Shown here: positions 31,673 through 57,129 of the stretch, one piece after another
Layout of the letters: each line of letters opens with the position of its first letter
Numbering within the stretch: position 1 is the first letter of the stretch
Source of the DNA: Candidatus Bathyarchaeia archaeon
Lineage (GTDB): Archaea; Thermoproteota; CALKCG01; B24
DNA length: 64,000 nt
Direction of reading: 5' to 3'
NCBI GenBank assembly: GCA_038870975.1
Contig: JAVZJD010000001.1
Span: forward strand, 416,001-480,000
Program-made: the position numbers and the translations under genes
The notes under the pieces: generated by a model
Databases searched by the model: none
What the model saw: only the letters and a program-made list of their open reading frames with translations
Told to the model about the DNA's origin: nothing

Positions 31673-32031
31673 ACCCCCACCTCTTAACGGAGAATTCCAA
31701 CACTTTTATTCAAAAGGTTGTATTCCGCTAGAAGGCGGATTTGTTATTATCAAAAAATATAAAATTTCCCCTTAAAAAATTTTAACAAATTAACTTAAAA
31801 ATGTATATCGAGGAAAAGACCATAGGAGAACCACGTCATTAAGCGTCATTGCCCTTAGATGTACGCCTAGCGGAGTGAAGCTCATGACCTTACGTTTACT
31901 ATCAGGTTTTTAATATTCTAATGCCCATGTAGAGTAAAAAATACGTACTGAAGCCCTTGGTCTTGATCGAACTCAAGAGTTTCCAGGGAAACGTTTATTT
32001 TACACCGCCCTCGTTTTTATGGTTGCAAGCC

Positions 32032-33006
32032 ATGATAATATTAACACACGGAGACTGCGATGGCGTCTGTTCAGCCGCTATAGTTAAAATGCTATATCCA
32101 CATGCAGATGTCTACTTTACAAACCCTTCCAAGCTTTTACCAGATTTGAAGAAGTTTAACACTCCAGATGCCCTTGTAGTATGCGATATAGCTTTAAATG
32201 AGGGGGAGTGGCTTTCAGTTGAAGGAGAACTTAGAAGAATATCGCAAGGCTTTGAGGCAGTTTACATAGACCATCATCAATTGCCAGTAGATTTTCCAAG
32301 AGAGGTAAAGTCTGGGGTTAAAATCTACCATAGGGAGGATATGTGCGCTTCTCAAATAGTCTACGCTGTGTACAGCGATAGGATGGAAGAACGCACGAGG
32401 AGGTGGGCAGCGGTATTAGCTACTTATGGGGCAATATCAGATTACACTGAGGATACTCCGCCTGCATCAGAACTCTTAAACATGGTCGATAAGAGGGTAT
32501 TATATCTTGAATCTGGGGTATTGAGTGAAGCATTGGCTGTAAAACATGATGACAGCTTTAAGAAAGCTATAATTGAAGATTTAACTAAAGGAATTAAACC
32601 GAGTCAGATACCTAAATTAGTCGACTATGCTGTCGAAGCGTTGAAGCTAGAGTATGAAGTGTATAGTTACGTTGAAGGATATACGCGTAGAGTAGGAGAT
32701 GTCGCAGTGGTTATGAATTTACCGCATAAGGGGTTTCTAGGTAAAGCAGCCATCTACTCGATATATGTCTCTGGCGCTAGCATTGGATGCGCCATTGCTT
32801 TAAAAGAAAAGACTGCTGAATTGAGTTTAAGAACAAGAGACCCTAAGATAAATCTAGGTAGTATTGTGAGAAAAGTTGCAAAGACTTTGGGAGGCAGAGG
32901 TGGAGGACACAATCAAGCCTGTGGTGCTGAAATCCCAGAAGATGCTGTTGAAGACTTCATACGTATGGTTAACTCTCTAGTCTCCAGAGGCTCTGGAAGT
33001 CTCTGA
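32032..33006 (+). CDS. DHH/DHHA1 family phosphoesterase (RecJ/NrnA-like)
   Basis: THGDCDG, VCD, IDHH, SLRT, GGGH. Likely start ATG 32032. Confidence 0.9.
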   Translation: MIILTHGDCDGVCSAAIVKMLYPHADVYFTNPSKLLPDLKKFNTPDALVVCDIALNEGEWLSVEGELRRISQGFEAVYIDHHQLPVDFPREVKSGVKIYHREDMCASQIVYAVYSDRMEERTRRWAAVLATYGAISDYTEDTPPASELLNMVDKRVLYLESGVLSEALAVKHDDSFKKAIIEDLTKGIKPSQIPKLVDYAVEALKLEYEVYSYVEGYTRRVGDVAVVMNLPHKGFLGKAAIYSIYVSGASIGCAIALKEKTAELSLRTRDPKINLGSIVRKVAKTLGGRGGGHNQACGAEIPEDAVEDFIRMVNSLVSRGSGSL

Positions 33007-34936
33007 CGGCTTTAGCTAAATTTTCAATTTTCCTGAAAGCCTGTATGTTCCTACGCCAATCTTCGGGAAGTTTTTCCGCTATATGTCCAATCATTCGACT
33101 GTCCATGATCACTATTATCCCCTTATCCTCTGGTTTTCTGATTAAGCGTCCAGCTGCTTGAGCCAGAGCATTAATACAGGGATTTACATTGGCATACTCG
33201 TAGCCCTTCTCACCAAACTTCTCGACGAAATACTTGGTTAATGCTTCCTGAAGTTCCGTTTTCTTAGGATAAGGTAAACCGACTATTACAACGGCTGATA
33301 ATAGGGAACCTAATTCATCTGAGAAGTCTACACCTTCACTGACTTTTCCTCTTGCAACAGCCATTACTGTTGGCTTACTATTAGTCTTTAGAAACTTGTA
33401 AACGTCTTCAAAAGACGTATCTTCATTTTCATATAAAACTGGTGTTTCAAAGTCTTTTGAGTACTGTTTAACTGCGTTCATCACTTCATATGATGGAAAG
33501 TATAAAGCCATAGCCCCATCGATAGAGTCCCTTAAAACCTTAATGTGCTCAGCTATTTTAACCCATTCTTCTTCACACCTCCTGGTAAACTTTGTAGTTA
33601 CACCTAAGTCTACGAAAATAGCCCTATTCTCCTCTGGAAATGGATATGGAAGGTCAAGTTTACTGACGCGATTCTTATTTAAGCCTAAGACTTCAATGTA
33701 GTAGTCCATATCCCAAAGCGTTCCAGACATAAGTGTAACCGCATAAATGTCATTGAGTACAGACGCTACGGGAGATGGGTCTAAAAGCCTTAATCCAATC
33801 CTATAATTTAGGGAGCCATCTCTAAAGGTGAAACCTTCTATATACTTTACAAAATTAGACTCTTCAGATTCGACAAAATGCTCGAGAAAAACCCCAACTC
33901 TAGATGTGTATGAAATAGGCGGTAGACCTTCAGAAATCTTCATAGACCTTATAACCTCACCTTCCTCTTGAAAGAACTTGGCGACCTCTAAAAGCCCACC
34001 ATACTGGTCTGCGTTTAAAGTAGTACTCAAAAGTTCCTCAATGTACGCATCTTCTAGAAGTCTAACCTCGTCCTGCTGAATTTGGAGGTTGTCTCCCAGT
34101 CTTTTTACGGCAGTTAAAATATTTTTCAAGTATTCGGTTGCATTTGAACTGTAACGCTCACATTCTCTGAGGGCCCTCTCTAGAGTAACCGTTGAAATAG
34201 TCTCCGTAGTTAGTTCTGTTAAATAGCTTGGTAGCGAGTGCGCTTCATCAACGACGCATATGGTGTCTTCAAGGTGTATGGAGGCTTTCGTAAAGGTGCT
34301 CTCTCTCACAGCGTCCATAAAGAGGTAGTTGTAGCTCCCAACGATGACGTCCGCCTTCTTGAGTAGGAGCTTGGAAACCTCGTAGGGGCATAGCTCCAGG
34401 TCTATACATAGGTTGAAAACCTCATGTGGAGTTGAAGCTCCAACTTCTCCGAGTTTATCCAGAGCTTTTAAAGCCTTCCATGATGGTCGTTTACCTGAGA
34501 AGGTAGACTCATAGAAGGCGCATTTCTCATTTAGAGAGCGACTTCTGAGGCTTTTACAATACTTTAAGAAGTCTCCATATGGTATGTTTTTAATATCGTC
34601 TAAAGAAGCCTTAGGGCACATGTGTTTCCGACTCGTAAGTGGGACTACTGTAAACTTCTCCGATGAAAACTGGGATATTCTCCTAGCCTCCCTACAGTAG
34701 ATTTCAAGCTGGTTTCTAGTCCTAGTTAGGACAAGAAGCCTCTTGGATAATCCGAGGCTTCTAACAGCCATGTAAGCCGTTAAAACGGATATACTTTTAC
34801 CCGTCCCACATGGACTTGAAAGAAGTGCAATTCTACCGTTTTTGAAAGCTTCAAATAGGAAGCGTATGGCTTTAAGCTGACCAGCCCTGTAAGATTTATA
34901 CGGGAAGAACTTGGCGAAAAGTTCTTTATACTCCAC
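32969..34936 (-). CDS. xpd: XPD/Rad3-family Fe-S DNA helicase
   Basis: SPCGTGKS, four Fe-S Cys, VDEAH, SGTL, SEGVDF, QAAGRLIR. Confidence 0.92.
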   Translation of the reverse strand: MEYKELFAKFFPYKSYRAGQLKAIRFLFEAFKNGRIALLSSPCGTGKSISVLTAYMAVRSLGLSKRLLVLTRTRNQLEIYCREARRISQFSSEKFTVVPLTSRKHMCPKASLDDIKNIPYGDFLKYCKSLRSRSLNEKCAFYESTFSGKRPSWKALKALDKLGEVGASTPHEVFNLCIDLELCPYEVSKLLLKKADVIVGSYNYLFMDAVRESTFTKASIHLEDTICVVDEAHSLPSYLTELTTETISTVTLERALRECERYSSNATEYLKNILTAVKRLGDNLQIQQDEVRLLEDAYIEELLSTTLNADQYGGLLEVAKFFQEEGEVIRSMKISEGLPPISYTSRVGVFLEHFVESEESNFVKYIEGFTFRDGSLNYRIGLRLLDPSPVASVLNDIYAVTLMSGTLWDMDYYIEVLGLNKNRVSKLDLPYPFPEENRAIFVDLGVTTKFTRRCEEEWVKIAEHIKVLRDSIDGAMALYFPSYEVMNAVKQYSKDFETPVLYENEDTSFEDVYKFLKTNSKPTVMAVARGKVSEGVDFSDELGSLLSAVVIVGLPYPKKTELQEALTKYFVEKFGEKGYEYANVNPCINALAQAAGRLIRKPEDKGIIVIMDSRMIGHIAEKLPEDWRRNIQAFRKIENLAKAVRDFQSLWRLES

Positions 34937-35007
34937 AAAGCTATAACTGGAAACTCTAAAGCTTAAGCTTTTTAGAATCTTAGATATATATTTCCCCAGG
35001 AGGGTTA

Positions 35008-35493
35008 GTGGTTTTGAAGATTCTCTGGGCGCCTTGGAGGGCGAAATACGTAGAGAAGCCTGCGGAGAACTGTATATTCTGCGATAAAATCCGTGAAAAT
35101 AAGGATGAAGAAAACTTGATAGTTTTAAGAGGCCGAAGGGTGTTTATAATGCTTAACAGATATCCTTATAATACTGGACATCTCATGGTGGCACCCTATA
35201 GACACATTGCAGATATGGAGGAGCTTAGTGAAGACGAAGCTATGGAGATTTTCAAGCTTTTGACGGAATCTATTAAAGCGCTTAAAAACACCTTTAAACC
35301 AGATGGATTTAACATAGGTGTAAACCTTGGCAGAGCCGCTGGAGCCGGCGTAGAGGGGCATATACATTTTCATGTTGTCCCAAGATGGCTTGGCGATACA
35401 AACTTCATGCCTGTCATTTCTCATACGAAAGTCATGCCTATTTCTCTAGAAGAAGTCTATACGAAGATTAAAAAAAGCATAAAATCCTTTTGA
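35008..35493 (+). CDS. HIT family hydrolase (Ap4A phosphorylase/hydrolase type)
   Basis: WAPWR, CIFC, NRYPYNTGH, HIHFHVVPRW. Confidence 0.94.
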   Translation: MVLKILWAPWRAKYVEKPAENCIFCDKIRENKDEENLIVLRGRRVFIMLNRYPYNTGHLMVAPYRHIADMEELSEDEAMEIFKLLTESIKALKNTFKPDGFNIGVNLGRAAGAGVEGHIHFHVVPRWLGDTNFMPVISHTKVMPISLEEVYTKIKKSIKSF

Positions 35494-35509
35494 AGACTAT
35501 TCATATAGG

Positions 35510-36187
35510 CTAATCACATATTAACGTTCCTATTTTAACACCTTTAACGGCTAATTCAATATTCTCAGGTTTAAAACCGTTTAAAACTATGGTTTTGATT
35601 TTATGTCTAGCTATTAATCTGGCCGCTTTTGGATCTATTATCGTTTTTAAACCTGCTTCATAATGTACACGTCCAAACATATTTTTAAGCTCTTTGAAGC
35701 TTAGATTGTCGATTTTAAAGGCGTCGGGATATCGTGACGGGTCTTTGTTATAGATGCCGTCTCTATTGGTAGCTTTAATCAGCAGATTAAAGCCAAGTTT
35801 AATTGCTGCAAGAACTGCTACAGTATCAGTAGTCATACCTGGCTTAATGCCACCCATAACTACGATGCTGTGTTTTTTAAACAGTTTAGAGACTTCTCCT
35901 ATTCTCTTAGGGATTGTCACGGGAGTTGTTGGTCTTAGTGCTTCAGCTAGCAGTTGGGCGATTACTCGTGATGCTTGTATGGCTATTCTATCTTGACTTT
36001 CTTGGGACATGTTCATCATCTTTGCATTTTCTATCAGTATTCTAGCCAGTTCTCCTCCCCCGGTTACGACGAGTAGTTTAAAACCGTTTTGAGAAAGTTT
36101 ACCTAAAATTTTAGAGTATTCTAGTATAAGAAGTGGATTTAACGGAGAGGCTATGACAGAACCGCCTATTCTAAGCACTATTTTCAT
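35510..36187 (-). CDS. pyrH: UMP kinase
   Basis: IGGSV, VTGGG, PGMTTDTVA, DGIYNKDP. Likely start ATG 36187 after GGTGGTG. Confidence 0.93.
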   Translation of the reverse strand: MKIVLRIGGSVIASPLNPLLILEYSKILGKLSQNGFKLLVVTGGGELARILIENAKMMNMSQESQDRIAIQASRVIAQLLAEALRPTTPVTIPKRIGEVSKLFKKHSIVVMGGIKPGMTTDTVAVLAAIKLGFNLLIKATNRDGIYNKDPSRYPDAFKIDNLSFKELKNMFGRVHYEAGLKTIIDPKAARLIARHKIKTIVLNGFKPENIELAVKGVKIGTLICD

Positions 36188-36208
36188 TGGAAACACCACC
36201 TAAATTTA

Positions 36209-36235
36209 TTTAAACTGACTTCGTCATAGTTTAAA
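36209..36235. promoter_or_regulatory. Inverted repeat TTTAAACT-N11-AGTTTAAA in the pyrH / wHTH-NrdD divergent intergenic region
   Basis: Read directly; the inner TGAC-ttc-GTCA is also palindromic. Could be back-to-back TATA boxes and/or an operator. Confidence 0.45.
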
Positions 36236-36261
36236 ATACTATCTATTGAGAGGAGAGATTT

Positions 36262-38532
36262 TTGAGCAGAATTAGAAGGGGCTTTTCAAATCAAGTTTTT
36301 CAGGTTCTTTCTTCACCGATTAGGTTTGAAGTCCTTAGACTTCTAAGGCTAAACCGTACTTTAACCTATAGTGAAATTATGGATATGCTAGGTTTAGAGC
36401 CAGCTAAACATGCTGGTAAGTTTGCATATCACCTCAGAAGCCTTGTAAAGGCTAGACTTATTGAAAAGACGGATGACGGTAAGACTTATCGGCTTACAGA
36501 CCTTGGGGTTAGAGTTTTAGAGTTCGCTCAAGAGCTTAATGAATATCTTATGAAGAAAGCGGGTAAACTTCTGGTTAGAAGTTCTAGAATGGCTATAGAA
36601 GAGTTTGACAGGCTTAGAATAGTGAATAGTCTTATTAAAGAAGCGCAGGTTCCTTTAGACTTGGCCGAATCTATTTCGCTTGAAGTTGAAAGAAGACTTG
36701 TAAACCTTCAGGTTAAATATTTAACTGCTCCACTTATACGAGAAATAGTTAATGCAATTCTCATAGAGAAGGGGCTTGAGGAGTATAGGCATAGACTTAC
36801 AAGACTCGGCCTTCCAGTTTACGACGTCGTTAAAACATTTGAAAAAGCTAGTACGATGAAAATGCACGTCGAAGAAGTTAGAGAAATAGCTGGTGAAGCA
36901 GTTTTAAGAGAATATACTCTTTTAAACGTTCTACCTAGAGACGTTGCCGACGCATACTTAAGTGGAGACATACATTTAGAACTCCCAGGGTCTTGGATAC
37001 TTAGACCCGACGTCATCCAACATGACATACGGCTGATTCTGACGGGTAAGTTTCCAAACATGCCCAGTAAAAGCCCAACGACGTTAACTTCAGCATTAAA
37101 CAGGCTTAGGGTTGCCGCCTACAACAGCAGTTTTGAGGTTAATTTAGACCAGGGATTTGACATGTTCAACGTCTTCTTAGCGCCTTTCACCAGAGGAAGA
37201 AGGCTTGTGGAAGTTAAACGGGCGCTTCAAGTATTCATAGAATCTATGAGAATCTCCTCAAATCTCAACGTCAACTTTGGATTAGAAGTGGGTTTAAATC
37301 GGAAGATTGAAAACCTTAAAACTATACCTGGTGGAGAAGTTTATGGAGACTATCGAGATGAAGTTTTAACGTTTACACAAGCTCTTATAGATGTCTTAAA
37401 GAAGGAGTATTCGAGGAGCCCACTCTACAATTTCAATTTGACAATCAAGATTAGAGAATGGCCTCTGAAAGACGAGTGGATAGAAGTAATGAAGAGCATA
37501 CACGATGCTGCGAAGTTTGGCATACCCATTGTAATAGCTAATCTAACGGATGTAGATGATAACACCAGCTTCTCAAGCTATGGATTTAGATTTGAGCCTC
37601 TTTCAGACTGGGAAGTGGATACGCTAGCAGTACCTATGATTGTAGACGTTTCCATAAACATGCCTAGGCTCGCTCAAATATCTAAAGGAAGCGATGAACG
37701 CCTCTGGGAGAATTTACAGAAGATAATGGACAAGGCTATTGAAGCAATACATATTAGGAGGGGGGCTTTGGAGAGCCGGATTAAAGAGGGGCTTCTACCG
37801 AATATTTCTCAACCAGACGATCCATATGTGAGGTTTAAAGCCATGTTTTCAGCTCTTGGACTATTTGGACTTAATGAAGCCACTGTTCTACACACAGGCT
37901 CAGACCTTACGAGCACTACATCACAAGCTGCTATGCTTAGAGTTTTAAGGCGTATACGCGCATACTTAGATGCAAGTAGAGATAGAATTGGATTGACGAG
38001 TATATGCGGTGAAGAGGGCGCATCTAGGCTTGTAAATCTAGACCTCAATAACTACGGTAAATCCATCTTAAACAGTCAAGGTTTCAGGAGAGAGCCATAC
38101 TACACCGATGTATGCGTAGTGCCTTTAGAATACGGCATACCGCTTTCTAAAAGGCTTGAAATAGAGGAGAAAGTGGGTTCTATAATGAATTATGGAACTC
38201 TTCCAGTCATAGAGGTGAATTCGAACGAAGTTGATGGTGAAACTCTCTTTAAGACGACATCATACATAGTGTCCAAGTATAAGCAACTCAGATGCTTCAC
38301 ATACTCGACCTTCACAACGTACTGTAAACGATGCTCTAAACTGTTTGAAGGCTATTGGGATAGATGCCCGAAGTGTAGCAACATAGCTACCGTAGTTCAA
38401 TACGGCAGAACTCCAACCCTAGTTAAACCAATATACAGGTGGACTTCTGAAAAAAGAGCAAATATGTTTCTAAGAAAAGCTTACGGTGTTAAAGACATCG
38501 AATCCTTAACCCCTATTTTAAGCCCGGCTTAG
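36262..38532 (+). CDS. wHTH (ArsR-like) + ATP-cone + degenerate class III ribonucleotide reductase (NrdD-like), predicted catalytically inactive
   Basis: N-terminal wHTH ([11 protein letters not shown]...FAYHLRSL...YRLT), ATP cone (VRSS...FDRLRI), NrdD core (GDIHL, INMPRLA, GLNEA, YYT) and Zn CxxC/CxxC. Catalytic Cys residues and the RxxGY Gly are absent. Confidence 0.88.
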
Positions 38533-38993
38533 AATTGATTTATAATATCTTCTCTAGTCATAACTATTCTGCAGTAGTGGCATCTAAGCCTTAGAGGTTC
38601 TACGCTTTCAACGATAAACGTAGGTTGAACGGGTTCTCCGCTGTTTGTTATACAGGATGCATTCGCACATTTGATCACGCCCTTTATGATTTTTGGAAGT
38701 TTAACTTTATTCTTTTCAACTACCTCATAGTTCCGTATAATGTTTATGGTGGCGTTTGGAGCTATTAGAGCTATTTTATGGACTTCATCTTCTCTAAGCT
38801 CTCGATTCTCAACCTTCACAATATCTTTTCTGCCGAGCTTTTGACTTGGGACATTCATAAGAATACTTATAATATTGCCCTCTTTACCGGTTAATCCTAT
38901 TATCCTGAGAACCGCTAAAGCATATCCAGCAGTTATGTGGTCTATGACGGTTCCATCTTCAATCTTGCTAACTCTCAGCTCTTTTTCAACCAT
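38529..38993 (-). CDS. pyrI: Aspartate carbamoyltransferase regulatory subunit
   Basis: [26 protein letters not shown]4-C...CxxC. Confidence 0.97.
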
Positions 38994-39114
38994 AAAGCCA
39001 CCCTTTTAAGTGTACTAAACTAAATCTAAAATAGATTTACTTTAAAAAGCTTACAGCTTCCATAATTCCGCTGGATTTCTCGATAAGTTAGATAAACTCA
39101 GGTAGTTTTCAAAT

Positions 39115-39429
39115 TCAGTGGATTCTCCTAAAGTTTATGATGTATACATATGTTTCAGGGGTTAAACTAGGATAGTGCCTTTTAAGAGCTTTGATAAGCT
39201 CCATTCTATTTTTAAACCCATCTTTTCTAGCGTCTTCATCGTTTAGCTCTAAGAGTTTCTTCCGAGTAACACTTCTTACTATAGCATATCCGCAGCTTAC
39301 ACCGCCAGCTATTAATTCAACTAAGTCTCCAGGTTTAACGTGTGCATTCACTCTTATGGTCGTCGTTTTCCGTCCATCCTTCAAAGCCTCTCTATACTCT
39401 TTTTTGAAGTTCAACTGTTTATACTCCAT
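39115..39429 (-). CDS. ASCH domain protein (YqfB-like)
   Basis: GRKTTTIR, EDARKDGF, LKRHYP, YIINF; overlaps the tmcA stop by 11 nt. Confidence 0.9.
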   Translation of the reverse strand: MEYKQLNFKKEYREALKDGRKTTTIRVNAHVKPGDLVELIAGGVSCGYAIVRSVTRKKLLELNDEDARKDGFKNRMELIKALKRHYPSLTPETYVYIINFRRIH

Positions 39430-41695
39430 AGAAGTCCACCATTTCAGCGAGAATCTTCCTTAAATCCATCTTTAAATTCGACTGAGGAACCTGGAAGATT
39501 TTCGTAATATGCCTCCACGGTTTGGCCTGTAAGCATTTAGCTATAAGTTTAGCTTCAACATCCATACTGAGACCCATCCTACAGCTTCCAGAGTTGAGGA
39601 AGTGGGATTTTACAAACTGCTTAATAGCATCGCATGCGGCTTCATAAGCCAGTTTGCCTGAAACGTACTGCAATAGTCGGCTTTTCTGCGAACTTGTTAG
39701 AGATGGCTCTTCTCTATTATCCCAATTTTGAGACTTTAAAAGTCTTACTGTTATCTGCGGTTCAAGGTCGAAGTATATGTCTGGAAGAGATTCTACGAGC
39801 CTCAGTTTGAATTCCCTGTGGACTCCTTTTACTATTTCAACTGCTTTTCCAGTCAGAGGTCTGATAAATATTACGCTGAATTCACCTGAGACCGTGTTTC
39901 TCATAGGGCTTATATGCACAGGTGTGAAGCTGTTTTTAAGCCAAAAATCGATTAACTTTACGTCTGCTCCGAAACTAGCACCAACCCATTCAAAACCATT
40001 AGCTTCAACTTCCTTACACAACTCTTCTATAGCTAGACTGCCCAATCCTCTCCCCGTGAATTTGGGATGCGTTGCAATTCTGACCACTCTTAAGCCTTTA
40101 AGCCTGGAAAACTCAGCATAATCAGGGTAGTATTTAATTATACACGACGGTATAAGGTGCCCTTGAGGTGGAGAACCAGCTAAAACTTCCTCTACAAGCC
40201 CATCGTAGCCTTCTTCACTTATCTGTAGGGCTACTAAAACTTTACCTGACGCTGACAGAATGGCTCTAGTTGAATGGTGGGGGGCATCTCCCAAGATGAG
40301 GAGGTCGTCCGGTCTATTCCTATAGTGGGCTAAAACATATATACCTATGAACTGCCTCAGGTGTTCTTCATCTTCCCCAAACCATAAGTCTAAATCAGGC
40401 TTCATATATGCGCATTCGCCGAGTTTAAATTCACTTTCTTCGACATCCGCAGGCTCAGCATTAAGTAGCAGGGTATTGTAAAGCCATTTTTCAACTGGAT
40501 CATCTAAAGCATATCTAATTGGCTCTTTGAGCTCAACCTTATAAAGCGTTATTTTCTCGAGTTTTTCGAGACGTTTTAAGAATCTTAAAGAGAAGCCTCT
40601 ACCAGCACCCTCATATCCGTGGACTGTAGAGGCGAATACAACTTTTGGAAATTTCTCAGCTATTTCAAATAGGAGTGGCACTTGGATCCCAGCCGCTTCA
40701 TCAACAAACACTACTTCAGCTTTCTCCTTTAACAACCTATATGGCTGTACGAATTCTACAACCCCTTTATTACAACTCAGTTTAAATGTTAAATTTTCAA
40801 CGTATTCCCTCTCAACATCTTCACCTATAGTTTTAAGCCCCTTCTCAGCCATATCGAAAATAACCTGGGTTTCTTCACAGGCTGGAGCTGTAACTAATAT
40901 TCTCCTACAGCCGAAAAGCATGAGGGGAGCTACCGCTAGACCCAGTAGAGCGGACTTACCTCTACCCCTATTAGAAGTCATAATTATTATGCTTCTACTT
41001 TTCTTGGCAAATTTTTCAACGTATTTTAGAGCCTCTACCTGCTCTTGCGTCAATGCCAAGTCGTAGATGGCTCTTGGGATTCGACTTTTATTCGGAGGAG
41101 ACGGCTTCTCTCTAGTTGAGGTTGGAGGATTTAGCATGTTCCCCCTGATTATGTTCCAACCGTCCAATATCCAGATACTCTGGTCCTCTAGAATTTTCCT
41201 AGTAAAGTATTTTTCAAACCGCGCCTTCATATCGGATTCACCATAGGGCGGTGAGATAAGCTTCTTATGCAGGCTTGTACTCCATGGTTTTTCAGCGTTT
41301 AAATCTAGGTTGTAGAATATTACTAAGCCTCCTCCTCTGACCGTCTCAATAAGCCTCCCCATGTCGTTTGGTCTAGCTCCTACGCTCATGTCGAGGATTA
41401 AGATGTCGTTTGTAGTACCCATGAGTCTATGGGTTTCTTTATAGGTGTAGAGTTTAACATTGCCTATAGGGTAGGATTTTTCTTCGAGCCGTTTGATGAA
41501 GACGTTGTAGTTTGAGGTGTCGTCTGAGCTAACGTAGACGACTTTTTCTTCTCCCCCGGCTTTAAGAGTGAAGTGTTTAAAGACTATGTAGGCGAGGACT
41601 TCTTCAGATTCTCTACCGTAAACTACGAGGAGCCTCCTATGGAAGGACCTCAAGGCTTCCTCCATCATGCCGATGAGAAGTTGTTCGACTTTCAA
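39419..41695 (-). CDS. tmcA: RNA cytidine acetyltransferase TmcA/NAT10 (ac4C writer)
   Basis: ETVRGGG, RGRGKSA, DEAA, STVHGYEGAGRGF, AHYRNRPDD, GNAT motif RIATHP...GRGLGS. Confidence 0.95.
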   Translation of the reverse strand: MKVEQLLIGMMEEALRSFHRRLLVVYGRESEEVLAYIVFKHFTLKAGGEEKVVYVSSDDTSNYNVFIKRLEEKSYPIGNVKLYTYKETHRLMGTTNDILILDMSVGARPNDMGRLIETVRGGGLVIFYNLDLNAEKPWSTSLHKKLISPPYGESDMKARFEKYFTRKILEDQSIWILDGWNIIRGNMLNPPTSTREKPSPPNKSRIPRAIYDLALTQEQVEALKYVEKFAKKSRSIIIMTSNRGRGKSALLGLAVAPLMLFGCRRILVTAPACEETQVIFDMAEKGLKTIGEDVEREYVENLTFKLSCNKGVVEFVQPYRLLKEKAEVVFVDEAAGIQVPLLFEIAEKFPKVVFASTVHGYEGAGRGFSLRFLKRLEKLEKITLYKVELKEPIRYALDDPVEKWLYNTLLLNAEPADVEESEFKLGECAYMKPDLDLWFGEDEEHLRQFIGIYVLAHYRNRPDDLLILGDAPHHSTRAILSASGKVLVALQISEEGYDGLVEEVLAGSPPQGHLIPSCIIKYYPDYAEFSRLKGLRVVRIATHPKFTGRGLGSLAIEELCKEVEANGFEWVGASFGADVKLIDFWLKNSFTPVHISPMRNTVSGEFSVIFIRPLTGKAVEIVKGVHREFKLRLVESLPDIYFDLEPQITVRLLKSQNWDNREEPSLTSSQKSRLLQYVSGKLAYEAACDAIKQFVKSHFLNSGSCRMGLSMDVEAKLIAKCLQAKPWRHITKIFQVPQSNLKMDLRKILAEMVDFYGV

Positions 41696-41815
41696 CTGGT
41701 CTTCGGTTTTAAAGGTGTAGGAAGACAGTAAAAACGTTTAGCTTGTTCTTCCAGAAACTAACGGTGATAATATTAATATACATGATACTTATATATGTAT
41801 TATGGAGGACTTACT

Positions 41816-42235
41816 ATGAGCGTGAAACAGCAGAGGTTTAAGATTTCTCCGACTGGCAGAGGCGCAATATTTAAACTAAAAAGGTGGTTCTACTTAGCGT
41901 TTTATACAAAAAACGTACCTGAGGATATTAAGGAGCAGAATCGAAAAGTGTGGCTTGAGCTTTCAAGAAGACTCATAGAAGAAATGAATAAGCGAGGTGC
42001 CTCAGAAAAACCTACGAGAATAACTTTAGAATACGAAGCCAGTCCGAACAACGAGTTTAAACCGATATCTGTAGCTGTTGAAGTAATGGAGATGAAGCCT
42101 GTAGAAAGCTTCAAAATTTCTTTCAGAGAAGGAGCGGTAGAAGAAAGAGAGAAGTTGAAGGCTCAACTCGCTGAAATACTTAGAAAAGCCAGAGAGCTGG
42201 GTATAAGCCCGGAAAACCTCATAGAGAAAAAGTAG
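41816..42235 (+). CDS. Putative ThermoDBP-related (DUF2258-like) nucleic-acid-binding protein with C-terminal coiled coil
   Basis: KLKRWF...KNVPE...ELSRRLIEEM...TRITLEYE...ISVAVEV plus a leucine-zipper-like tail. SD GGAGGA before ATG 41816. Family call from pattern memory only. Confidence 0.5.
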   Translation: MSVKQQRFKISPTGRGAIFKLKRWFYLAFYTKNVPEDIKEQNRKVWLELSRRLIEEMNKRGASEKPTRITLEYEASPNNEFKPISVAVEVMEMKPVESFKISFREGAVEEREKLKAQLAEILRKARELGISPENLIEKK

Positions 42236-42276
42236 CATAGTAGACAATGCTGTTTAAAACCCAAGCCTTAGGGGCG

Positions 42277-45200
42277 TTAAGCGTAGTCTATAAGCTTTTT
42301 CCCAGTTTTCTTCATCCAGTCTTCTATTGGCTGTTTAAATTTCTCTTCGAACGCAGTCCTATGGATTGAATTGAACGTACAGAAGGATATTATTTTTCCA
42401 TCTGGAGTTGCATAGTGTATGCCACATCTATTCACTCTATCTAAGTCTAGATTCCATACGTCTTGGAAGTGCATTATCCCAACCATTACTACATTATACA
42501 TAAGTCTCCCTAGGGCTTCATAGCTCCCTTTAGTTATAATGTCTTTGAGGAGGTTTCTGATGAGCTCGCTCTTTACCATCGGTAGAAGCTTAAGTGCTTC
42601 TAATTTGGCTCTTCTACTATGACCTCCAACCCCTAGGTAGTACATCCCCCAGAATACTTGGGCAAAGTTATCAACGTCTACAAGCTCAGTTATAGGTGTG
42701 AAAGACCCATCTTCTTTAGCCACTAGGAACGTGGCTGCACCGCAGTGGGGATGTAGCGTGAACTCTGGATACGTTCTATTCTTGACTACTTCCATCCCCT
42801 TGGCAATAGGTAGGGGCCAGTTTACAGGCCTCCAGCTCCATTTTGAGACTGCTCCATTAGTCTGCTCTTCGATGAGTTTTACGGCGTCTGGTATTGTTAT
42901 CCTCATCTTCCTCATTTCCTCTTTCCTAGCTCTACCTGCCATCGATATGGGCTGTATGTTTACACATCGGATTACGTCTCTATTGTTAATGGCATATCTT
43001 ACTATATCTCCCAAGTCGCCATCGTTAACACCCTTGGCAAGAGTAACCACTAATACTATAGACTTATGTCCAATCTTCCTAGCGTTTTCAATAACTCTGT
43101 TCTTAACGTCGACAAGTCCACCTCTGCCTCTAAGCTTCAGGTATATCTCCTCCCTCAATCCGTCGAATTGTAAATATATCGTATCCATACCAGCGTCCAG
43201 CAACCGACTGTAATAGTCCAAGTCTTCAGCAAGCCTAATTCCGTTAGTATTAACCTCTACATGTCTAATACCAGCCCGTTTAGCTTCTCTAACAAGGTCG
43301 GGAAGGTCGTTTCGAAGCGTAGGTTCTCCTCCGCTGAACTGTAGAGCATTCGCAGCCCACGGTCTGCTAGACCTGAAAAGTTTAATCATTCCGACTATCT
43401 GCTCATACGTTGGCTCGTAGACGTAGTTTACAGCACCCGCGTAGGCGAAGCATATAGGGCATGCCATATTGCAATTTGAGACGTAGATGAGGCCGTTTGC
43501 TGCAAATAAGTGGTTTTTATCTACTGTTATATCATAAACGTACTCGTCTTTTGAGGCAACTACCTCAAGCATCTTAACCTCGTCTAAGAAGAAGTCTTCA
43601 GACGAATATCTCCAAGCTATCTGAACAATACTTTTACATTTTTCACACAGCTCAAGATCGCGTAAACGGCTAAGAATCTTCCTTAAAGTTGTTTTTGTTG
43701 TGTTTCTCTTTCCCGTTAAAACCTTGGAGAGATAACTTGGGTCTTCTGGATATAGCGTTACCCTACTAAGCCTATGATGATTAATTACTTCAGCCAAGAG
43801 TTTTATACAAATCCTGGGGGCAATCTCTCGTCTAGATTTCCCAATTTTTCTCACACGTCCTTCAACAGCCAACTGTTTAAGTTTCTCAAACTTCTTGGGG
43901 TGATTGCTTCCAATAACCTTCACGAATGTAGATACGTCTTTAAACCCTGAAATCACAACAACATAGTAACTTGACTTTGAGAAACCACTTCCCTGCCTCT
44001 CATGCATAGAGGCGAGGATTCCACATCTCCTTAAGAGCTGAACAATTCTTACAGCCCTCTTTCTACTAGATGTAACATAGTACACTGAGTTCGAAGCTAA
44101 GCTTACCGCTCCATCGCCATCAAAATATCCCCTTAAAAACGCAGTTATACATTTATCAGGTAGCTTAAATATCTCCTTTAACTCTCCTTCGATTACAACC
44201 TTCTCAATCAGATCATAAACCAATAAATTGTTAAATGATAGCCTTAAACAGCCCCTTCCATCTGTGTAAACATGACATTTTGTACCTGGAAACAAAGCCT
44301 CAACAATATGTTTCGCTTTCTTTACTAGCTCTGGTTCTGTACTATGGAAGTTAGTCGTGTATACCCCACGGCTTCTACTAGTAGATAGAGACCCATCTGA
44401 AGCTATAAGCCCTATAAGGTATGCTAAATCTTCGTCAAAATACTTTGCCTTTAGTTCGACCGTTTTCTTACGCCAAGAAACCTTTTCAATATGAGTTAGA
44501 GAGAACTCCTGATCAATCCCAAGTTTCTCACATAGTCTTTTGAAATCTCTAAAGTTTATTCCGACGCTTAAGTCGTAAAGGTTCCAGTATTTAAGTTGTA
44601 ATTGACTTATGGCCCTTCTTAGAGACCCGTATGCTTCCCTGGCTTTACGGCGTATTAGCTCCATAAGCACATCATCTGGATAAACGTAAAGCCTATAATC
44701 GTCTATCAACTCTAAGACTGGTAGGTTTTTAACATTTACGTTTATCCTAGCAGGTGCATATATAAGGTCTCCCACCCTCAGCTGATCAGCTCTGACAAGT
44801 TGAGCCCCATATTCACCATCAATCAATATCTCATGGTCGGGAGTTACTTTAAGCTCAACTCCCGAAACCGTACAGATTCTTACTAAGCTGTTCGGAGCCT
44901 TCAACCTATGGACAGCTATGACATCAGGATACGTAGGCTTAGGTGGATTGCAACTTAATACACGTATTGGTTTAGCGATTATCCCAGAACCGCTTCCATC
45001 TAAGGGAAGGTTCTCATCCACAAATCTTCCTATTTCCACGATAGAACCATCCTCGAGGATAAGCTCACAGTCGTATGTCACACATCTATTGGTGACGTCT
45101 ATTATGCCTAGTATTGTGTGCGTTTTATGCTGGGGGCATATCCCACAGTCGTAGGGACAACCTCTATCTATTTGAGAATGGGGGTTTTCAAGACCACTTC

Positions 45201-45408
45201 CTATATATTTTGCCGTATTCCAGTTTTTCTCAAACCACTTATAGTATTCTGCATCTCCCCAGTAGATGTCTTCGAATTTTCCGTGTTCTGGACATGTTTT
45301 CTCCAAGTATATGACGTTGTTTTCTTCGTAGACCCTCATTGGTACTCTTCTGAAGCACAGTGGGCATATGCTCACCGACCATTTTTCAAAAGGTCTTCCG
45401 TTTGACAT
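42277..45408 (-). CDS. tes: Tetraether lipid synthase (Tes / GDGT-MAS radical SAM enzyme), intein-containing
   Basis: N-terminal CPLC...CPEHG, GCPYDCGICPQH, DVTNR|CNMACPICFA after splicing, QFSGGEPT, HPHCG, MHFQD...RCGIHY...FC. Spliced length 506 aa. Confidence 0.9.
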   Translation of the reverse strand: MSNGRPFEKWSVSICPLCFRRVPMRVYEENNVIYLEKTCPEHGKFEDIYWGDAEYYKWFEKNWNTAKYIGSGLENPHSQIDRGCPYDCGICPQHKTHTILGIIDVTNRCVTYDCELILEDGSIVEIGRFVDENLPLDGSGSGIIAKPIRVLSCNPPKPTYPDVIAVHRLKAPNSLVRICTVSGVELKVTPDHEILIDGEYGAQLVRADQLRVGDLIYAPARINVNVKNLPVLELIDDYRLYVYPDDVLMELIRRKAREAYGSLRRAISQLQLKYWNLYDLSVGINFRDFKRLCEKLGIDQEFSLTHIEKVSWRKKTVELKAKYFDEDLAYLIGLIASDGSLSTSRSRGVYTTNFHSTEPELVKKAKHIVEALFPGTKCHVYTDGRGCLRLSFNNLLVYDLIEKVVIEGELKEIFKLPDKCITAFLRGYFDGDGAVSLASNSVYYVTSSRKRAVRIVQLLRRCGILASMHERQGSGFSKSSYYVVVISGFKDVSTFVKVIGSNHPKKFEKLKQLAVEGRVRKIGKSRREIAPRICIKLLAEVINHHRLSRVTLYPEDPSYLSKVLTGKRNTTKTTLRKILSRLRDLELCEKCKSIVQIAWRYSSEDFFLDEVKMLEVVASKDEYVYDITVDKNHLFAANGLIYVSNCNMACPICFAYAGAVNYVYEPTYEQIVGMIKLFRSSRPWAANALQFSGGEPTLRNDLPDLVREAKRAGIRHVEVNTNGIRLAEDLDYYSRLLDAGMDTIYLQFDGLREEIYLKLRGRGGLVDVKNRVIENARKIGHKSIVLVVTLAKGVNDGDLGDIVRYAINNRDVIRCVNIQPISMAGRARKEEMRKMRITIPDAVKLIEEQTNGAVSKWSWRPVNWPLPIAKGMEVVKNRTYPEFTLHPHCGAATFLVAKEDGSFTPITELVDVDNFAQVFWGMYYLGVGGHSRRAKLEALKLLPMVKSELIRNLLKDIITKGSYEALGRLMYNVVMVGIMHFQDVWNLDLDRVNRCGIHYATPDGKIISFCTFNSIHRTAFEEKFKQPIEDWMKKTGKKLIDYA
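43474..45084 (-). mobile_element. Intein (537 aa) with LAGLIDADG homing endonuclease
   Basis: Starts CVTYDCELILEDG, has block B VTPDHEI, LAGLIDADG motifs YLIGLIASDGS and FLRGYFDGDG, and ends VYDITV...YVSN|C. Confidence 0.95.
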
Positions 45409-45455
45409 GACATTGAAATTTCTAGCTTGATTAAATATATAATGATTTTCTCGGT

Positions 45456-46172
45456 CTAAATGGTTTTCCTGAGGTCTAATATTAAGTCAGGCTTATTCGT
45501 CGTTATCGAGTCGACCTTTTTTCCGACCAATTCTCTAGCTGTTTTCAAGTCGTCTACAGTCCAGACGTTGACTTTAAGGTTAAGCCTATGGGCAAATTCA
45601 ACTGTTTCAAGGGAGGCTAGTCTATAGTTTGGCATAACGGCTATACATCCGATGTTTTTAGCTTTTGAGATGAAATCGCCGGGCTTTGCGTATATTAAAC
45701 CCATATAGGCTTTGGGATTTCCTTGGGCGACGTTTTTTAGAGCTTCCTCGTGGAAAGATATGAACATGACCTGGTTTAACATCCTTCTGCTTTCTACGAG
45801 GTTTAAAGCGTAATTAGAAGCTTCGACTTCTTTAAGCTCCAATAGTAGACATATGCGTCCACACACCACATCTAAGACTTCTGAGAGCAGTGGAATTTTC
45901 TCACCCTTACCAGCGTCGAAGTTTTTAAGCTGTTTAGCTGTGTAACTGTCAACTCTACCTGAGCCGTTTGTAGTCCGATCTATGGTTTCATCGTGTATCA
46001 CTACTGGCACTTTATCTTTTGAAAGTCTAACGTCAACTTCCACTGCATCTGCTCCCATATCTATGGCTTTTTCAACCGCTCTGATGGTATTCTCAGGCTC
46101 ATAGCCTGAAGCCCCTCTATGTGCGACTACCGCTACCGGCTTTATGGAGAGGAACTCTGAGATTTCTACCAA
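45456..46172 (-). CDS. Glycerophosphodiester phosphodiesterase
   Basis: AHRGASG, PENT, EVDV, IHD, ELK, WTVD, ITTNKP. Confidence 0.94.
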   Translation of the reverse strand: MVEISEFLSIKPVAVVAHRGASGYEPENTIRAVEKAIDMGADAVEVDVRLSKDKVPVVIHDETIDRTTNGSGRVDSYTAKQLKNFDAGKGEKIPLLSEVLDVVCGRICLLLELKEVEASNYALNLVESRRMLNQVMFISFHEEALKNVAQGNPKAYMGLIYAKPGDFISKAKNIGCIAVMPNYRLASLETVEFAHRLNLKVNVWTVDDLKTARELVGKKVDSITTNKPDLILDLRKTI

Positions 46173-46320
46173 TGCTGTTACCCACCGTTAGCTTAATTGT
46201 AGCGTTAGACTATATATATGTTAAACATGGTCTTTAAAAAGCCTAAGCCAACCTAAGGAGAGGTTTACACGTGTATGTTGGATAATCTTTAACAGGAGGA
46301 TTGATTAAGTAGTGTGAAGT

Positions 46321-48000
46321 TTGAAAGGTTCCTTCATAAGATTGTGTGAAGTTTACGAGTCCATAGAGAAGCTTAGCTCTAGAAGTGAGATCGTAGAGCT
46401 TATGGCTGGATATTTCAAGGATTTAAACGCTTCAGAGGTTAAAATAGCTGTTAAACTTTCTACGTCGGATTTTAGAGAAGCTTTAAACGTAAGCTGGGCT
46501 ACGCTTTTAAAGACTTTGAAAGAACTGTATAGGTTTAACGATGAAGACTTCTACAGGGCTTTCAATGATACTGGCGACGTGGGAAGCGCTGTTAAATCGA
46601 TCTTAGAAGCTAAAAGGCTTAGCCGTCAAACACTGTTGATGGTGAAGCCTCTTACACTCGAAGAGTTAGACATGCTTCTCAGAGAGGTTTCAGAAATCAA
46701 AGGCCCAGGCTCTAAGTATAAGAAGGTTAGAGTTTTAAAGGGCTTGTTTAGCAAGGTTTCACCGCTTGAAGCTAAGTACTTGGTTAGGATAATCTTAGGA
46801 GACCTGAGGATAGGTGTTAAAGAGGGGATAATTGTTAAAGCCCTCTCTGAAGCTTTCCACATTCCCTATGATGCTTTAGAGAGAGCTTTAATGCTTAGTG
46901 GAGATTTAGCTATGACCGCTGCTGTTGCTAAAACACAAGGCCTCCATGGTATTCTGAACATGAGGTATGTTCCGTTTAACCCTATAAAGCCTATGCTCGC
47001 AGGTATGGCCTACAACGTGAGGGAGATTTTAGACGAGTTTAAAGGCAAAGCTGCTTTTGAGTATAAGCTCGACGGTGCTAGAGTTCAAATACATGCATTT
47101 AATGGGGGTGTGAGGGTTTTTTCAAGGGGGCTTAAAGACGTAACTTCTAGTCTGCCTGAAGTAGTCGATGCTATTAGAGGAGAGGATAAGCTGAAGAACT
47201 GTGTAGTTGAAGGTGAAGTTATAGCAGTTAACTTCAACGGTAAACCTCTCCCTTTCCAGGAGCTTATGCATAGGTTTAAACGGATAAGAAGCGTTGAAGA
47301 AGAAGCTAAGAGGCTTCCGATTAAACTATACTTATTCGACATATTGGTTGACGAAGGCTCTTTGACTATAGGTGAACCTTACATTGAGAGAAGAAAGCGT
47401 TTAACCAGGAAGGTGGAGTCTATACCCCTGGTAGACAGCCTGATGACTCAAGATTTGGAAGAGGCTGAGGAATTCTACAGGAAGGCTTTAGAATATGGAC
47501 ATGAAGGTGTAGTAGCAAAAAAGCCTGATAGCATATACCACCCTGGTGTACGTGGTAGAGATTGGCTGAAAGTAAAAGAGACACTTGACACTTTAGACCT
47601 GGTTATAGTTGGAGGAGAATATGGATATGGACGTAGATACAGATGGATAAGCGACTACTTCTTAGCCGCTTTAGACAATTCAACTGGTGGCTTCACAATA
47701 ATTGGCAAGACTTTCAAAGGTCTAGTAGATGAAGAGTTTGAAAACCTAACGAAAACACTTGAAAACGACGTAGTTAAAAGAGAAGGACGTAGAGTATGGG
47801 TAAACCCTAGAATAGTAGTTGAAGTAGCTTACAACGAAATACAGAAAAGCCAGAAATACCCATCCGGATTCGCACTACGATTCGCAAGAATAGTAAGAAT
47901 ACGCTGGGATAAAAAAGTCGAAGAAGCAGATACAATAGACAAAGTCAGAGAAATATACATAAAACAATTCGAAAGGAAAGCTTCAAACCACCAGCGGTAA
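46321..48000 (+). CDS. lig: ATP-dependent DNA ligase
   Basis: EYKLDGAR, EGEV, FDIL, EGVVAK, WLKVK, ALRFAR. Confidence 0.97.
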   Translation: MKGSFIRLCEVYESIEKLSSRSEIVELMAGYFKDLNASEVKIAVKLSTSDFREALNVSWATLLKTLKELYRFNDEDFYRAFNDTGDVGSAVKSILEAKRLSRQTLLMVKPLTLEELDMLLREVSEIKGPGSKYKKVRVLKGLFSKVSPLEAKYLVRIILGDLRIGVKEGIIVKALSEAFHIPYDALERALMLSGDLAMTAAVAKTQGLHGILNMRYVPFNPIKPMLAGMAYNVREILDEFKGKAAFEYKLDGARVQIHAFNGGVRVFSRGLKDVTSSLPEVVDAIRGEDKLKNCVVEGEVIAVNFNGKPLPFQELMHRFKRIRSVEEEAKRLPIKLYLFDILVDEGSLTIGEPYIERRKRLTRKVESIPLVDSLMTQDLEEAEEFYRKALEYGHEGVVAKKPDSIYHPGVRGRDWLKVKETLDTLDLVIVGGEYGYGRRYRWISDYFLAALDNSTGGFTIIGKTFKGLVDEEFENLTKTLENDVVKREGRRVWVNPRIVVEVAYNEIQKSQKYPSGFALRFARIVRIRWDKKVEEADTIDKVREIYIKQFERKASNHQR

Positions 48001-48023
48001 TTTAGATTATTTTTAAAATAGAT

Positions 48024-48350
48024 TTAATGGGTACATTTTAGAGGATATTTACCGTAGTTTCTCGCAGTTTCAACCATCGGAAATATGTTTTCACCTGGCG
48101 TATCTCTTCCAACTTGGTCTCCCGTAGATAAGACGAACCCACCGTTTTCCCCAGCCACGTCTATGCACTGCTTAGCTTTCTCTTCAACTTCCTTAGGTTT
48201 AGCCGTGAATAGCCAGCTGGTTTGAATATTACCTTTGAGCGCAAGCCTATACCTGAAGCGGCGTTTAACATCAGCTAGATTGCAGTCTCCATTAGGTGGT
48301 TCTTCAAGAGGCTCTATGGAGTATAAATCCGTTTCACTAGCAGCAACTTC
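48024..48350 (-). pseudogene. 5'-truncated URO-D/MtaA-like gene (C-terminal ~108 codons)
   Basis: Manual translation ...IEPLEEPPNGDCNLADVKRRF...LKGNIQT...AGENGGFVLSTGDQVGRDTPGENI...YGKY. No start codon; abuts the PfkB stop. Confidence 0.8.
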
Positions 48351-48351
48351 T

Positions 48352-49260
48352 TTAAAAAGATAGTTTTTTAATTTTATCTATCAATGTTTCAGCTCTTTCG
48401 TAGACTTCGTTTTTTAAGCCAAATCTTGAGGGGCCATATCCTTCAGTAACGAAAGATGAAGCTGCTGATGCTACTGCAAGACTCCAGTCTAAATCGCCAC
48501 TACGGAAAAACTCTACGGTAAATCCAGCTGTGAAGCTATCTCCTGCTCCAGTTGGATCGACGAATTTAGGAGGCTTATAAGGTGGGCTTCGTAAGATTCT
48601 ACAGGTTGTTGTACATAGGGAGCCTAATTCCCCTAGGGTTAAAAGCACTACACCACGATGCATCTTTCCAAGCTTTTTAACTGCCTCCATAGGGTCACTT
48701 GCACCTGTTAAAGCCTCCGCCTCTTTCATGCTAAGCTTGACGATGTCTGCATTTGACAATATTTCAGGGTTTAATGGTCCCTCTTCGTAAACTTCACCAT
48801 CTACTTTAAACTTTCTTATGAAGCCTTGGACGTCTATTGAAAGCATCTGGGCCTTGATTCTTAGAGCTTTTAAAGTGTCTAGCCCAACTTCACCCGCTAC
48901 AGAGCCTACATGAGCTAATTCAACCTTTGGAAGATTTACAAGCTCATTAGGGGCGATGGGGCTACATAAGCTTAGAAGCTTCAGGGTTCTACCACTATTC
49001 CCATATACGAGTTTAAACCGCGTAGTCTTAGAGTTTAAATCTCTAACGTAGAAGTTTGTGTTTAACTGCGATTTTGAAAGCCAAACCATGAATTCTTCTG
49101 GAAAGTCATATCCGACTTTTGAAACGGGCATGGACTCACATCCAAGCCTTAGAGCTGTCATAGAAGCATAGACCGATGGACCACCGGGGGTTGGTCGAGT
49201 GGGATGCTTAGCCACGTATATTAAATCTACAGTTGTATGTCCTACTACTGTGAACTTCAT
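48352..49260 (-). CDS. PfkB/ribokinase family kinase
   Basis: PGGP, DVQG, TLGELGS, DPTGAGDSF. Confidence 0.92.
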   Translation of the reverse strand: MKFTVVGHTTVDLIYVAKHPTRPTPGGPSVYASMTALRLGCESMPVSKVGYDFPEEFMVWLSKSQLNTNFYVRDLNSKTTRFKLVYGNSGRTLKLLSLCSPIAPNELVNLPKVELAHVGSVAGEVGLDTLKALRIKAQMLSIDVQGFIRKFKVDGEVYEEGPLNPEILSNADIVKLSMKEAEALTGASDPMEAVKKLGKMHRGVVLLTLGELGSLCTTTCRILRSPPYKPPKFVDPTGAGDSFTAGFTVEFFRSGDLDWSLAVASAASSFVTEGYGPSRFGLKNEVYERAETLIDKIKKLSF

Positions 49261-49287
49261 GTGAAAGCCTATCCTCAACTTAACGCT

Positions 49288-50292: not shown

Positions 50293-50313
50293 TTCCTTAG
50301 AGAAGACGATCTA

Positions 50314-57126: not shown

Positions 57127-57129
57127 CAC

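Follow-up and report, generated by a model that had tools for sequence, protein, structure and literature searches.

A YqfB-like ASCH gene overlapping tmcA in a Bathyarchaeia archaeon: a conserved archaeal gene pair that may write and remove N4-acetylcytidine

Why should the gene for an RNA acetyltransferase overlap, at its 3' end, the gene for a small protein that resembles a deacetylating enzyme? To our knowledge, RNA carries a single type of acetylation, N4-acetylcytidine (ac4C). Some thermophilic archaea contain large amounts of it that vary with temperature, and whether cells actively remove it is a current question. We analyzed a stretch of 64,000 nucleotides from a Candidatus Bathyarchaeia archaeon (assembly GCA_038870975.1, contig JAVZJD010000001.1, positions 416,001 to 480,000), hereafter the window, in which tmcA, a gene for an RNA cytidine N4-acetyltransferase of the TmcA/NAT10 family, is directly followed by a gene for an ASCH-domain protein. 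In the reading we favor, with a probability of roughly 0.7, TmcA writes ac4C and the co-translated ASCH protein would hydrolyze the N4-acetyl group with a Lys/Thr/Arg/acid set of the YqfB type.

Both genes are located on the minus strand. The longest open reading frame (ORF) of tmcA occupies 39419..41695 (758 amino acids, with a TTG start at 41695), and the ASCH gene occupies 39115..39429 and codes, from an ATG, for 104 amino acids. They share 11 nucleotides on this strand (39419..39429, ATGGAGTATAA), within which fall the ATG of the ASCH gene, at 39429, and the TAA of tmcA, which ends at 39419; the two reading frames differ. A GGTGG motif is found inside tmcA, 6–10 nucleotides 5' of the ASCH ATG. 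Because the genes overlap by 11 nucleotides and leave no space for a promoter between them, we infer that they are co-transcribed as a single bicistronic message. The real start of tmcA is probably the ATG at 41668, which would give a protein of 749 amino acids, because a 100%-identical public gene call (P0005) has this length and a TTTAAAA box lies at approximately 41706–41712 on the minus strand. This box is situated in the intergenic region (41696..41794, not assigned to either strand) between tmcA and a divergent ORF of 146 amino acids, and we regard it as a candidate TATA box, of the archaeal kind, for transcription of tmcA-ASCH. A scan for sigma-70 promoters and intrinsic terminators was uninformative, such a scan being inapplicable to an archaeon.

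The product of the first gene matched three Pfam families, TmcA_N (7e-33), NAT10_TcmA_helicase (2e-55) and GNAT_acetyltr_2 (2e-34), in the order expected for TmcA/NAT10 proteins (PF08351 at residues 10–178, PF05127 at 239–412 and PF13718 from 449). It carries the motifs RGRGKS (243–248) and DEA (332–334), which we take to be the P-loop (GxGKS) and the DE-type Walker B motif of TmcA; in an alignment of 22 TmcA sequences, R243-G244-R245-G246-K247 and D332-E333-A334 were invariant and S248 was conserved in at least 90%. The NCBIfam TmcA model NF041296, which was made for Halobacteria, matched over the full length with 435 bits, under its equivalog cut-off of 700. With one genome taken per species, the TmcA proteins of the nearest species representatives were merely 62–63% identical to that of the window, and the nearest named sequences among 2079 homologs were from Bathyarchaeia.

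The second gene encodes a protein with a single ASCH domain, which covers residues 6–101 and scores 55.9 bits where the gathering score is 21.2 (Pfam PF04266, 7.5e-15). A single-sequence phmmer search of PDB sequences matched one ASCH structure, E. coli YqfB (9kyf, E 0.0016), with residues 4–101 aligned to residues 4–101. The two proteins are of nearly the same length (104 and 103 amino acids), align end to end and have F8, K21, T24 and R26 at the same positions, so that the octapeptide GRKTTTIR lies over GRKTITIR and K21/T24/R26 share YqfB numbering. In both the phmmer and hhalign alignments, D70 was placed opposite E74, which together with K21, T24 and R26 makes up the catalytic set of YqfB. 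We then aligned 43 ASCH sequences: the window protein, 3 close relatives, 23 proteins linked to tmcA in other archaea (see below) and 16 representatives. F8, K21, T24, R26, L78, L82 and Y86 were invariant in 43/43, and G19, G34, A49, A67, D70, G71, F72 and F100 were conserved in at least 90%. A profile built from this alignment also identified YqfB as the best PDB match (9.4e-11), the next solved ASCH protein being PF0469 (5.5e-4) and the others reaching 0.39 or higher, and hhalign to E. coli YqfB gave a probability of 97.4% over 96 columns.

Structure prediction was consistent with these alignments. The AlphaFold2 model of the ASCH protein (predicted local distance difference test score of 94.3) has the PUA-like beta-barrel with flanking helices that characterizes the ASCH superfamily fold. 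When it was compared with PDB structures using Foldseek, the YqfB crystal structures ranked best (TM 0.79–0.81, E 3e-7 to 5e-7; 0.81 for 9kyf). The first 11 matches at E <= 1e-3 were without exception ASCH or DUF984 structures, and PUA proteins appeared among the weak matches. The preliminary description of this DNA had reported the same-strand overlap of 11 nucleotides with the ASCH start inside the tmcA 3' end, the residues K21, T24 and R26 in GRKTTTIR and an acidic D70 in ARKDG. The ORF coordinates, the junction sequence and a residue count in the translation agree with it on all these points.

Is this arrangement a peculiarity of one genome? We used the 22-sequence TmcA alignment as a query against one genome per species. 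Of the confirmed stretches, at least 590 in number, the best 80 were kept, and every one of these was archaeal. Six-frame ORFs of these loci were compared with a profile that combined the window family with 150 representative matches. Four loci (L021, L034, L039 and L053) end within 65 nucleotides past tmcA and could not be judged, leaving 76 assessable loci. An ASCH ORF was located directly downstream of tmcA on the same strand in 27 of them. Linkage is thus not unique to this genome, and because an ASCH ORF fills the same downstream, same-strand slot in 27 of 80 other archaeal tmcA loci, the adjacency exceeds chance. The record titles of the linked loci name Bathyarchaeia, Hecatellales, Nezhaarchaeota, Methanomethylicota, Aenigmatarchaeota, Archaeoglobi (L069, L072 and L074) and unclassified metagenome-assembled genomes of Thermoproteota and Nitrososphaerota. 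With the start codons that we selected, the ASCH ORF overlaps the tmcA 3' end in 25 of the 27, by 4–47 nucleotides; the remaining two have spacers of 1 nucleotide (L067) and 70 nucleotides (L027). A Shine-Dalgarno-like tetramer was present within 20 nucleotides 5' of the ASCH start in 22/27, a weak indication, as this is a tally without a shuffle control.

ASCH was the single conserved neighbor. None of nine other window neighbors that we looked for recurred in more than 4/80 loci: relatives of the radical-SAM protein were found in four, XPD-like helicase in two, and DNA ligase and PyrI in one each (PyrI in L015, where it is upstream), and HIT, amino-acid kinase, NrdD, the 146-amino acid ORF and GDPD were found in 0/80. 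Altogether, 31 ASCH ORFs were matched, comprising the 27 in the linked slot, the window's own and three further matches elsewhere in the flanking sequence, which extended to 6 kb at most (L041, L061 and a weak one in L062); L016 and L023 were noted in this tally as cut by a contig end. On a FastTree phylogeny of TmcA, the linkage state required a minimum of 8 changes, compared with a mean of 23.1 after shuffling, and 0/500 shuffles were as low. Therefore, linkage is passed down within clades, with several losses or gains along the way.

Two of these further matches are longer proteins. In L041, an ASCH protein of 186 amino acids with a C-terminal extension is encoded head-to-head with tmcA, directly upstream and divergent (L041:5352-5912, minus strand), and a THUMP-methyltransferase gene (L041:9066-10109, plus strand) lies downstream of tmcA. 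In L061, a long form of 198 amino acids is encoded 2 kb downstream of tmcA (L061:10296-10892, plus strand). Both resemble the class of ASCH proteins with a helix-turn-helix (HTH) domain that is described in the accessible part of a recent preprint (bioRxiv 10.64898/2026.02.27.708502).

The slot itself was also inspected where ASCH was missing. We considered that a divergent, cryptic ASCH gene might be hidden there, and rejected this for the downstream slot, as 0/87 downstream ORFs from the 49 unlinked loci matched Pfam ASCH at E <= 1e-3. In the window's sister clade the slot is occupied by a glutaredoxin/thioredoxin-like gene coding for 102–109 amino acids (L001:2946-3254, L002:2549-2878, L003:4462-4773 and L004:2526-2840); ASCH was therefore either lost or moved in the sister clade or gained in the line of the window. 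In four of the five Thermococci, tmcA is followed by two consecutive same-strand genes for NYN-domain proteins, which are predicted ribonucleases (L033:8422-9463, L035:8466-9510, L048:2471-3540 and L050:5082-6161).

These data are consistent with the following scheme, whose core the preliminary description had outlined as a co-expressed pair that writes ac4C and removes, recycles or reads it, and which now gains support from the conserved linkage, the invariant residues and the match to YqfB in profile and predicted fold. tmcA and the ASCH gene would make up an operon of two genes, with ASCH translation coupled, probably at the 11-nucleotide overlap, to the end of tmcA. TmcA would use acetyl-CoA and ATP to place N4-acetyl groups on RNA cytidines. 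The ASCH protein would be an amidohydrolase of the YqfB type, converting N4-acetylcytidine to cytidine and acetate by means of Lys21, Thr24 and Arg26 of GRKTTTIR together with Asp70 as the counterpart of YqfB Glu74. The enzyme that makes ac4C and the enzyme that undoes it, or cleans up after it, would then be produced in a fixed ratio. The target of the ASCH protein may be ac4C in RNA or RNA fragments, in turnover or in the trimming of off-target acetylation, and possibly also the free nucleoside. A prediction of a TmcA-ASCH complex scored 0.00 and 0.00, which counts neither for nor against binding.

Much of the chemistry in this scheme has been described for relatives. YqfB-type enzymes are ac4C amidohydrolases (PMC6972931, PMC9599836), and YqfB hydrolyzes several N4-acylcytosine derivatives (PMC6972931), as stated in the portions of these papers on which we draw. 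In the available text of one 2026 preprint, proteins with the Thr-type (GKTR) octapeptide and those with the Glu-type (GKER) octapeptide alike act on ac4C as a free nucleoside, and ac4C was stripped from tRNA in vitro by every one of 19 ASCH proteins assayed, among them the archaeal GKTR-type Afu2, Afu3, Pku2 and Pku4 (bioRxiv 10.64898/2026.02.27.708502). A second one mentions, in the part available, that YqfB-clade ASCH genes are in a conserved operon with TmcA/Nat10 orthologs in several prokaryotes and, for other ASCH clades, reports fusion or linkage to acetyltransferases resembling NAT10/Kre33 (bioRxiv 10.64898/2026.08.01.741249). Thus, neither the enzymology (ac4C deacetylation by ASCH proteins) nor the operon link is new, both being present in these two preprints. 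What we add is the count of 27/76 archaeal loci, the pattern of overlaps, the basic charge of the proteins (see below) and a further example from an uncultured lineage; no new principle is involved.

At which level would such an enzyme act? The window ASCH protein has an isoelectric point (pI) of 9.81 and a net charge of +9, whereas E. coli YqfB has a pI of 4.68 and a net charge of -7. The same was seen throughout the linked family: for 26 proteins longer than 95 amino acids (the window protein and its linked counterparts) the median pI was 9.8 (range 7.9–11.3), the net charges of the linked archaeal proteins ranged from +1 to +19, and several of them end in Lys/Arg-rich C-terminal tails. Judged from the window ORFs, this isn't a proteome-wide bias, as the 47 ORFs of at least 150 amino acids had a median pI of 6.5 and 4% of them were above 9.5. 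In the accessible sections of the first preprint, mesophilic YqfB-type enzymes are said to be acidic and not to bind nucleic acids, a description from which the window protein departs in its charge, and archaeal ASCH members are given a pI near or above 9, some of them with a tRNA-binding C-terminal HTH domain (bioRxiv 10.64898/2026.02.27.708502). The basic charge of the tmcA-linked proteins, as calculated from their sequences, therefore hints at action on or near RNA. Because the archaeal proteins, in contrast to YqfB, have a strongly basic character, because some have basic tails, and because archaeal Thr-type ASCH proteins were reported to be active on tRNA in vitro, we lean slightly towards RNA or RNA fragments as the substrate, a preference that we hold tentatively and at somewhat less than even odds.

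Several observations weigh against the proposed scheme or against its RNA-level form. First, 49/76 assessable tmcA loci have no ASCH neighbor. It was missing in all 5 Thermococci, in all sampled Thermoproteales, Desulfurococcales and Sulfolobales, and in the sister clade of the window (L001-L004), and because of these absences the coupling of tmcA and ASCH must be regarded as dispensable. Second, the acid position is Asp instead of Glu, and it is Ala in 2/27 linked proteins (L058 and L066). Third, the single NCBIfam match of the ASCH protein, to the YqfB equivalog NF003443 (residues 3–103 of 104), reached 22.8 bits against a cut-off of 93; by this score the protein belongs, as a distant relative, to the YqfB-like branch with a Thr-type octapeptide and is not an ortholog of YqfB by the NCBIfam standard. 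Fourth, small size or thermophily may partly explain the high pI. Fifth, according to the available parts of the two preprints, tRNA ac4C was unchanged in E. coli lacking yqfB (bioRxiv 10.64898/2026.02.27.708502), and EOLA1 was interpreted as a free-nucleoside salvage enzyme (bioRxiv 10.64898/2026.08.01.741249). Finally, constant proportions of a writer and of an eraser acting on RNA would resemble a futile cycle.

The last two points also speak for a salvage role, in which the ASCH protein would act only on free ac4C or ac4CMP released from degraded acetylated RNA and return cytidine to the pool, as has been proposed for YqfB and EOLA1. The chemistry would be that of our scheme and only the substrate level would differ; co-expression would scale the clean-up to the amount of ac4C made, so that production in a fixed ratio escapes the futile-cycle objection. 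In addition, the closest characterized relative, YqfB, is described in the consulted parts of two papers as an ac4C nucleoside amidohydrolase (PMC6972931, PMC9599836). However, a nucleoside substrate would not call for the positive charge of the linked proteins or for the Lys/Arg-rich tails of several of them, the conserved neighbors include no salvage or pyrimidine gene, and archaeal GKTR proteins are reported, in the available text of the first preprint, to clear ac4C from tRNA in vitro (bioRxiv 10.64898/2026.02.27.708502). We consider exclusive salvage a serious alternative, though a doubtful one.

A different possibility is that the ASCH protein is a non-catalytic partner, an adaptor with a PUA-like fold that binds RNA or reads ac4C and guides TmcA. 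There is an analogy in THUMPD1 and Tan1, the small RNA-binding adaptors of NAT10 and Kre33, whose THUMP fold is unrelated to ASCH and lacks catalytic residues. The translational coupling suggested by the overlaps in 25/27 loci is typical of subunits made in a fixed ratio, and the basic charge and the fold would also suit an adaptor. However, the invariant residues include precisely the catalytic K21, T24 and R26 of YqfB, which a mere binder need not retain, and this makes an adaptor role unlikely. It is further disfavored by 49/76 tmcA genes managing without an ASCH neighbor and by the activity of 19/19 tested ASCH proteins in hydrolyzing tRNA ac4C, as given in the preprint text at hand (bioRxiv 10.64898/2026.02.27.708502). 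We regard this role as improbable.

Least probable is an unrelated function (another N-acyl nucleobase as substrate, or a ribonuclease activity) with an adjacency that has no functional meaning, for although ASCH proteins vary, with ZmASCH reported to be a ribonuclease (in the available part of bioRxiv 10.64898/2026.02.27.708502) and YqfB accepting several substrates (PMC6972931, in part), the slot next to tmcA is filled across deep archaeal lineages whose TmcA proteins are 36–63% identical to that of the window, no other neighbor is conserved and linkage is clustered on the TmcA tree.

How does the window pair compare with the systems described so far? To E. coli YqfB (PDB 9KYF/9KYH, 1TE7) the ASCH protein is similar in architecture and residues, as detailed above, and it differs in being ~24–26% identical and in its charge; the E. 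coli yqfB gene, moreover, lies between trhA and bglA, away from tmcA. The YqfB-clade/TmcA-Nat10 operon of the second preprint is the same gene pair, with the same proposal that the ASCH protein acts on the ac4C made by the acetyltransferase; in the part of that preprint available to us it takes up one sentence and supplementary Fig. S1a, for "several prokaryotes" (bioRxiv 10.64898/2026.08.01.741249). Afu2ASCH, Afu3ASCH, Pku2ASCH and Pku4ASCH share with the window protein an archaeal origin, the Thr octapeptide and a pI near or above 9 and are active in vitro on both free and tRNA ac4C; according to the same partial source, Afu3, Pku2 and Pku4 differ from it in possessing a C-terminal HTH domain (bioRxiv 10.64898/2026.02.27.708502). 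The three linked Archaeoglobi loci encode the short, tmcA-linked form, the comparison with the Afu and Pku proteins being by description and not by sequence. Human EOLA1 and the ASCH domain of TRIP4 (GKER type) have the ASCH fold and are reported, in the accessible literature text, as ac4C deacetylases; they differ in having Glu instead of Thr in the octapeptide, and the structural match to the window model was weak (5y7d, E 0.046, TM 0.52).

Homologs of the ASCH protein were collected by an exhaustive profile search (1219 representatives at E <= 1e-3), used in place of a word-based search that returned 4 close proteins. Among the top 150 representatives, none was longer than 254 amino acids. 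A search for longer ASCH forms found no fusion of TmcA and ASCH, a blank that from this search is weak evidence. Its single hit was a sequence of 715 amino acids (P0275), known from one example, with a GNAT domain (185–246), an ABC-type ATPase domain (415–536) and a C-terminal ASCH domain (615–709). By Pfam it is outside the TmcA family. Its ASCH domain is of the GLKTTTIR / DARKDGF type and is 41% identical to the window ASCH protein. As judged from its domains, this protein physically joins an ASCH domain of this type to an acetyltransferase with a P-loop ATPase, independently of the tmcA-ASCH pair, placing predicted writer-like and eraser-like functions in one polypeptide.

Downstream of the ASCH gene, 121 nucleotides past its stop codon, the next same-strand gene is pyrI (38529..38993, minus strand; aspartate carbamoyltransferase regulatory chain, Pfam PyrI 7e-35, PyrI_C 8e-18). 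The preliminary description had named pyrI as the next gene, correctly, and had taken it to link the pair to pyrimidine pools. For this link we found no support: pyrI was near tmcA in 1/80 loci, and in the window it stands behind a spacer with motifs of its own, namely a TTTTTAAA box and, just 5' of the pyrI ATG, a GGGTGG motif that resembles a ribosome-binding site. We therefore rejected pyrI as a member of the module. Pfam scans of the 58 ORFs in the window did not detect pyrB, the gene for the catalytic chain of aspartate carbamoyltransferase, nor was a cytidine deaminase or other pyrimidine-salvage gene seen in the window by these scans.

Other features of the window are recorded here as separate observations. 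The 3' end of pyrI overlaps by 4 nucleotides (38529–38532) the 3' end of a convergent gene for an anaerobic ribonucleotide reductase (NRDD, 36262..38532, plus strand), whose N terminus carries a winged-helix region (DUF7347/HTH_20) and which also has an ATP-cone. On the other side of tmcA, the divergent 146-amino acid ORF (41795..42235, plus strand) codes for a basic protein (pI 9.7) without a Pfam or NCBIfam match. It is followed by an ORF for a radical-SAM protein of 1043 amino acids (42277..45408, minus strand), which the NCBIfam model rSAM_GDGT_ether (587.6 bits, cut-off 450) identifies as the tetraether lipid synthase Tes. An intein that includes a homing-endonuclease domain of the LAGLIDADG type (Pfam Intein_splicing and LAGLIDADG_3) splits this ORF; the curated model for intein-containing Tes scored 425 against a cut-off of 1700, which may indicate a different intein or insertion site. 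Farther away, a 75-amino acid ORF overlapping a gene for a PIN-domain protein of 130 amino acids (the two together at 26954..27570, plus strand) looks like a toxin-antitoxin pair of the VapBC type. An Rfam scan of the whole window (1..64000) yielded 0 families at gathering score, with no separate tRNA scan made.

What might the pairing mean for the archaea that have it? One could imagine that an RNA-binding eraser, co-translated in stoichiometric amounts, is built in with the writer, and that continuous cycles of writing and erasing on RNA, and not nucleoside salvage alone, set the site selectivity or the temperature-dependent steady-state level of ac4C in a large share of the Archaea, comprising Bathyarchaeia, Nezha/Methanomethylicota, Kor-like lineages, Archaeoglobi and Aenigmatarchaeota; this idea, taken together with that range of lineages, is speculative, and we think it rather doubtful. 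If it were true, tmcA-ASCH would be, for any RNA modification, the first case in nature of a writer and an eraser encoded by one operon. The conserved operon of a writer and a predicted deacetylase offers a natural system in which to ask whether ac4C is removed on RNA or only on its breakdown products, and in their basic charge the archaeal proteins so coupled give a concrete, testable hint towards RNA.

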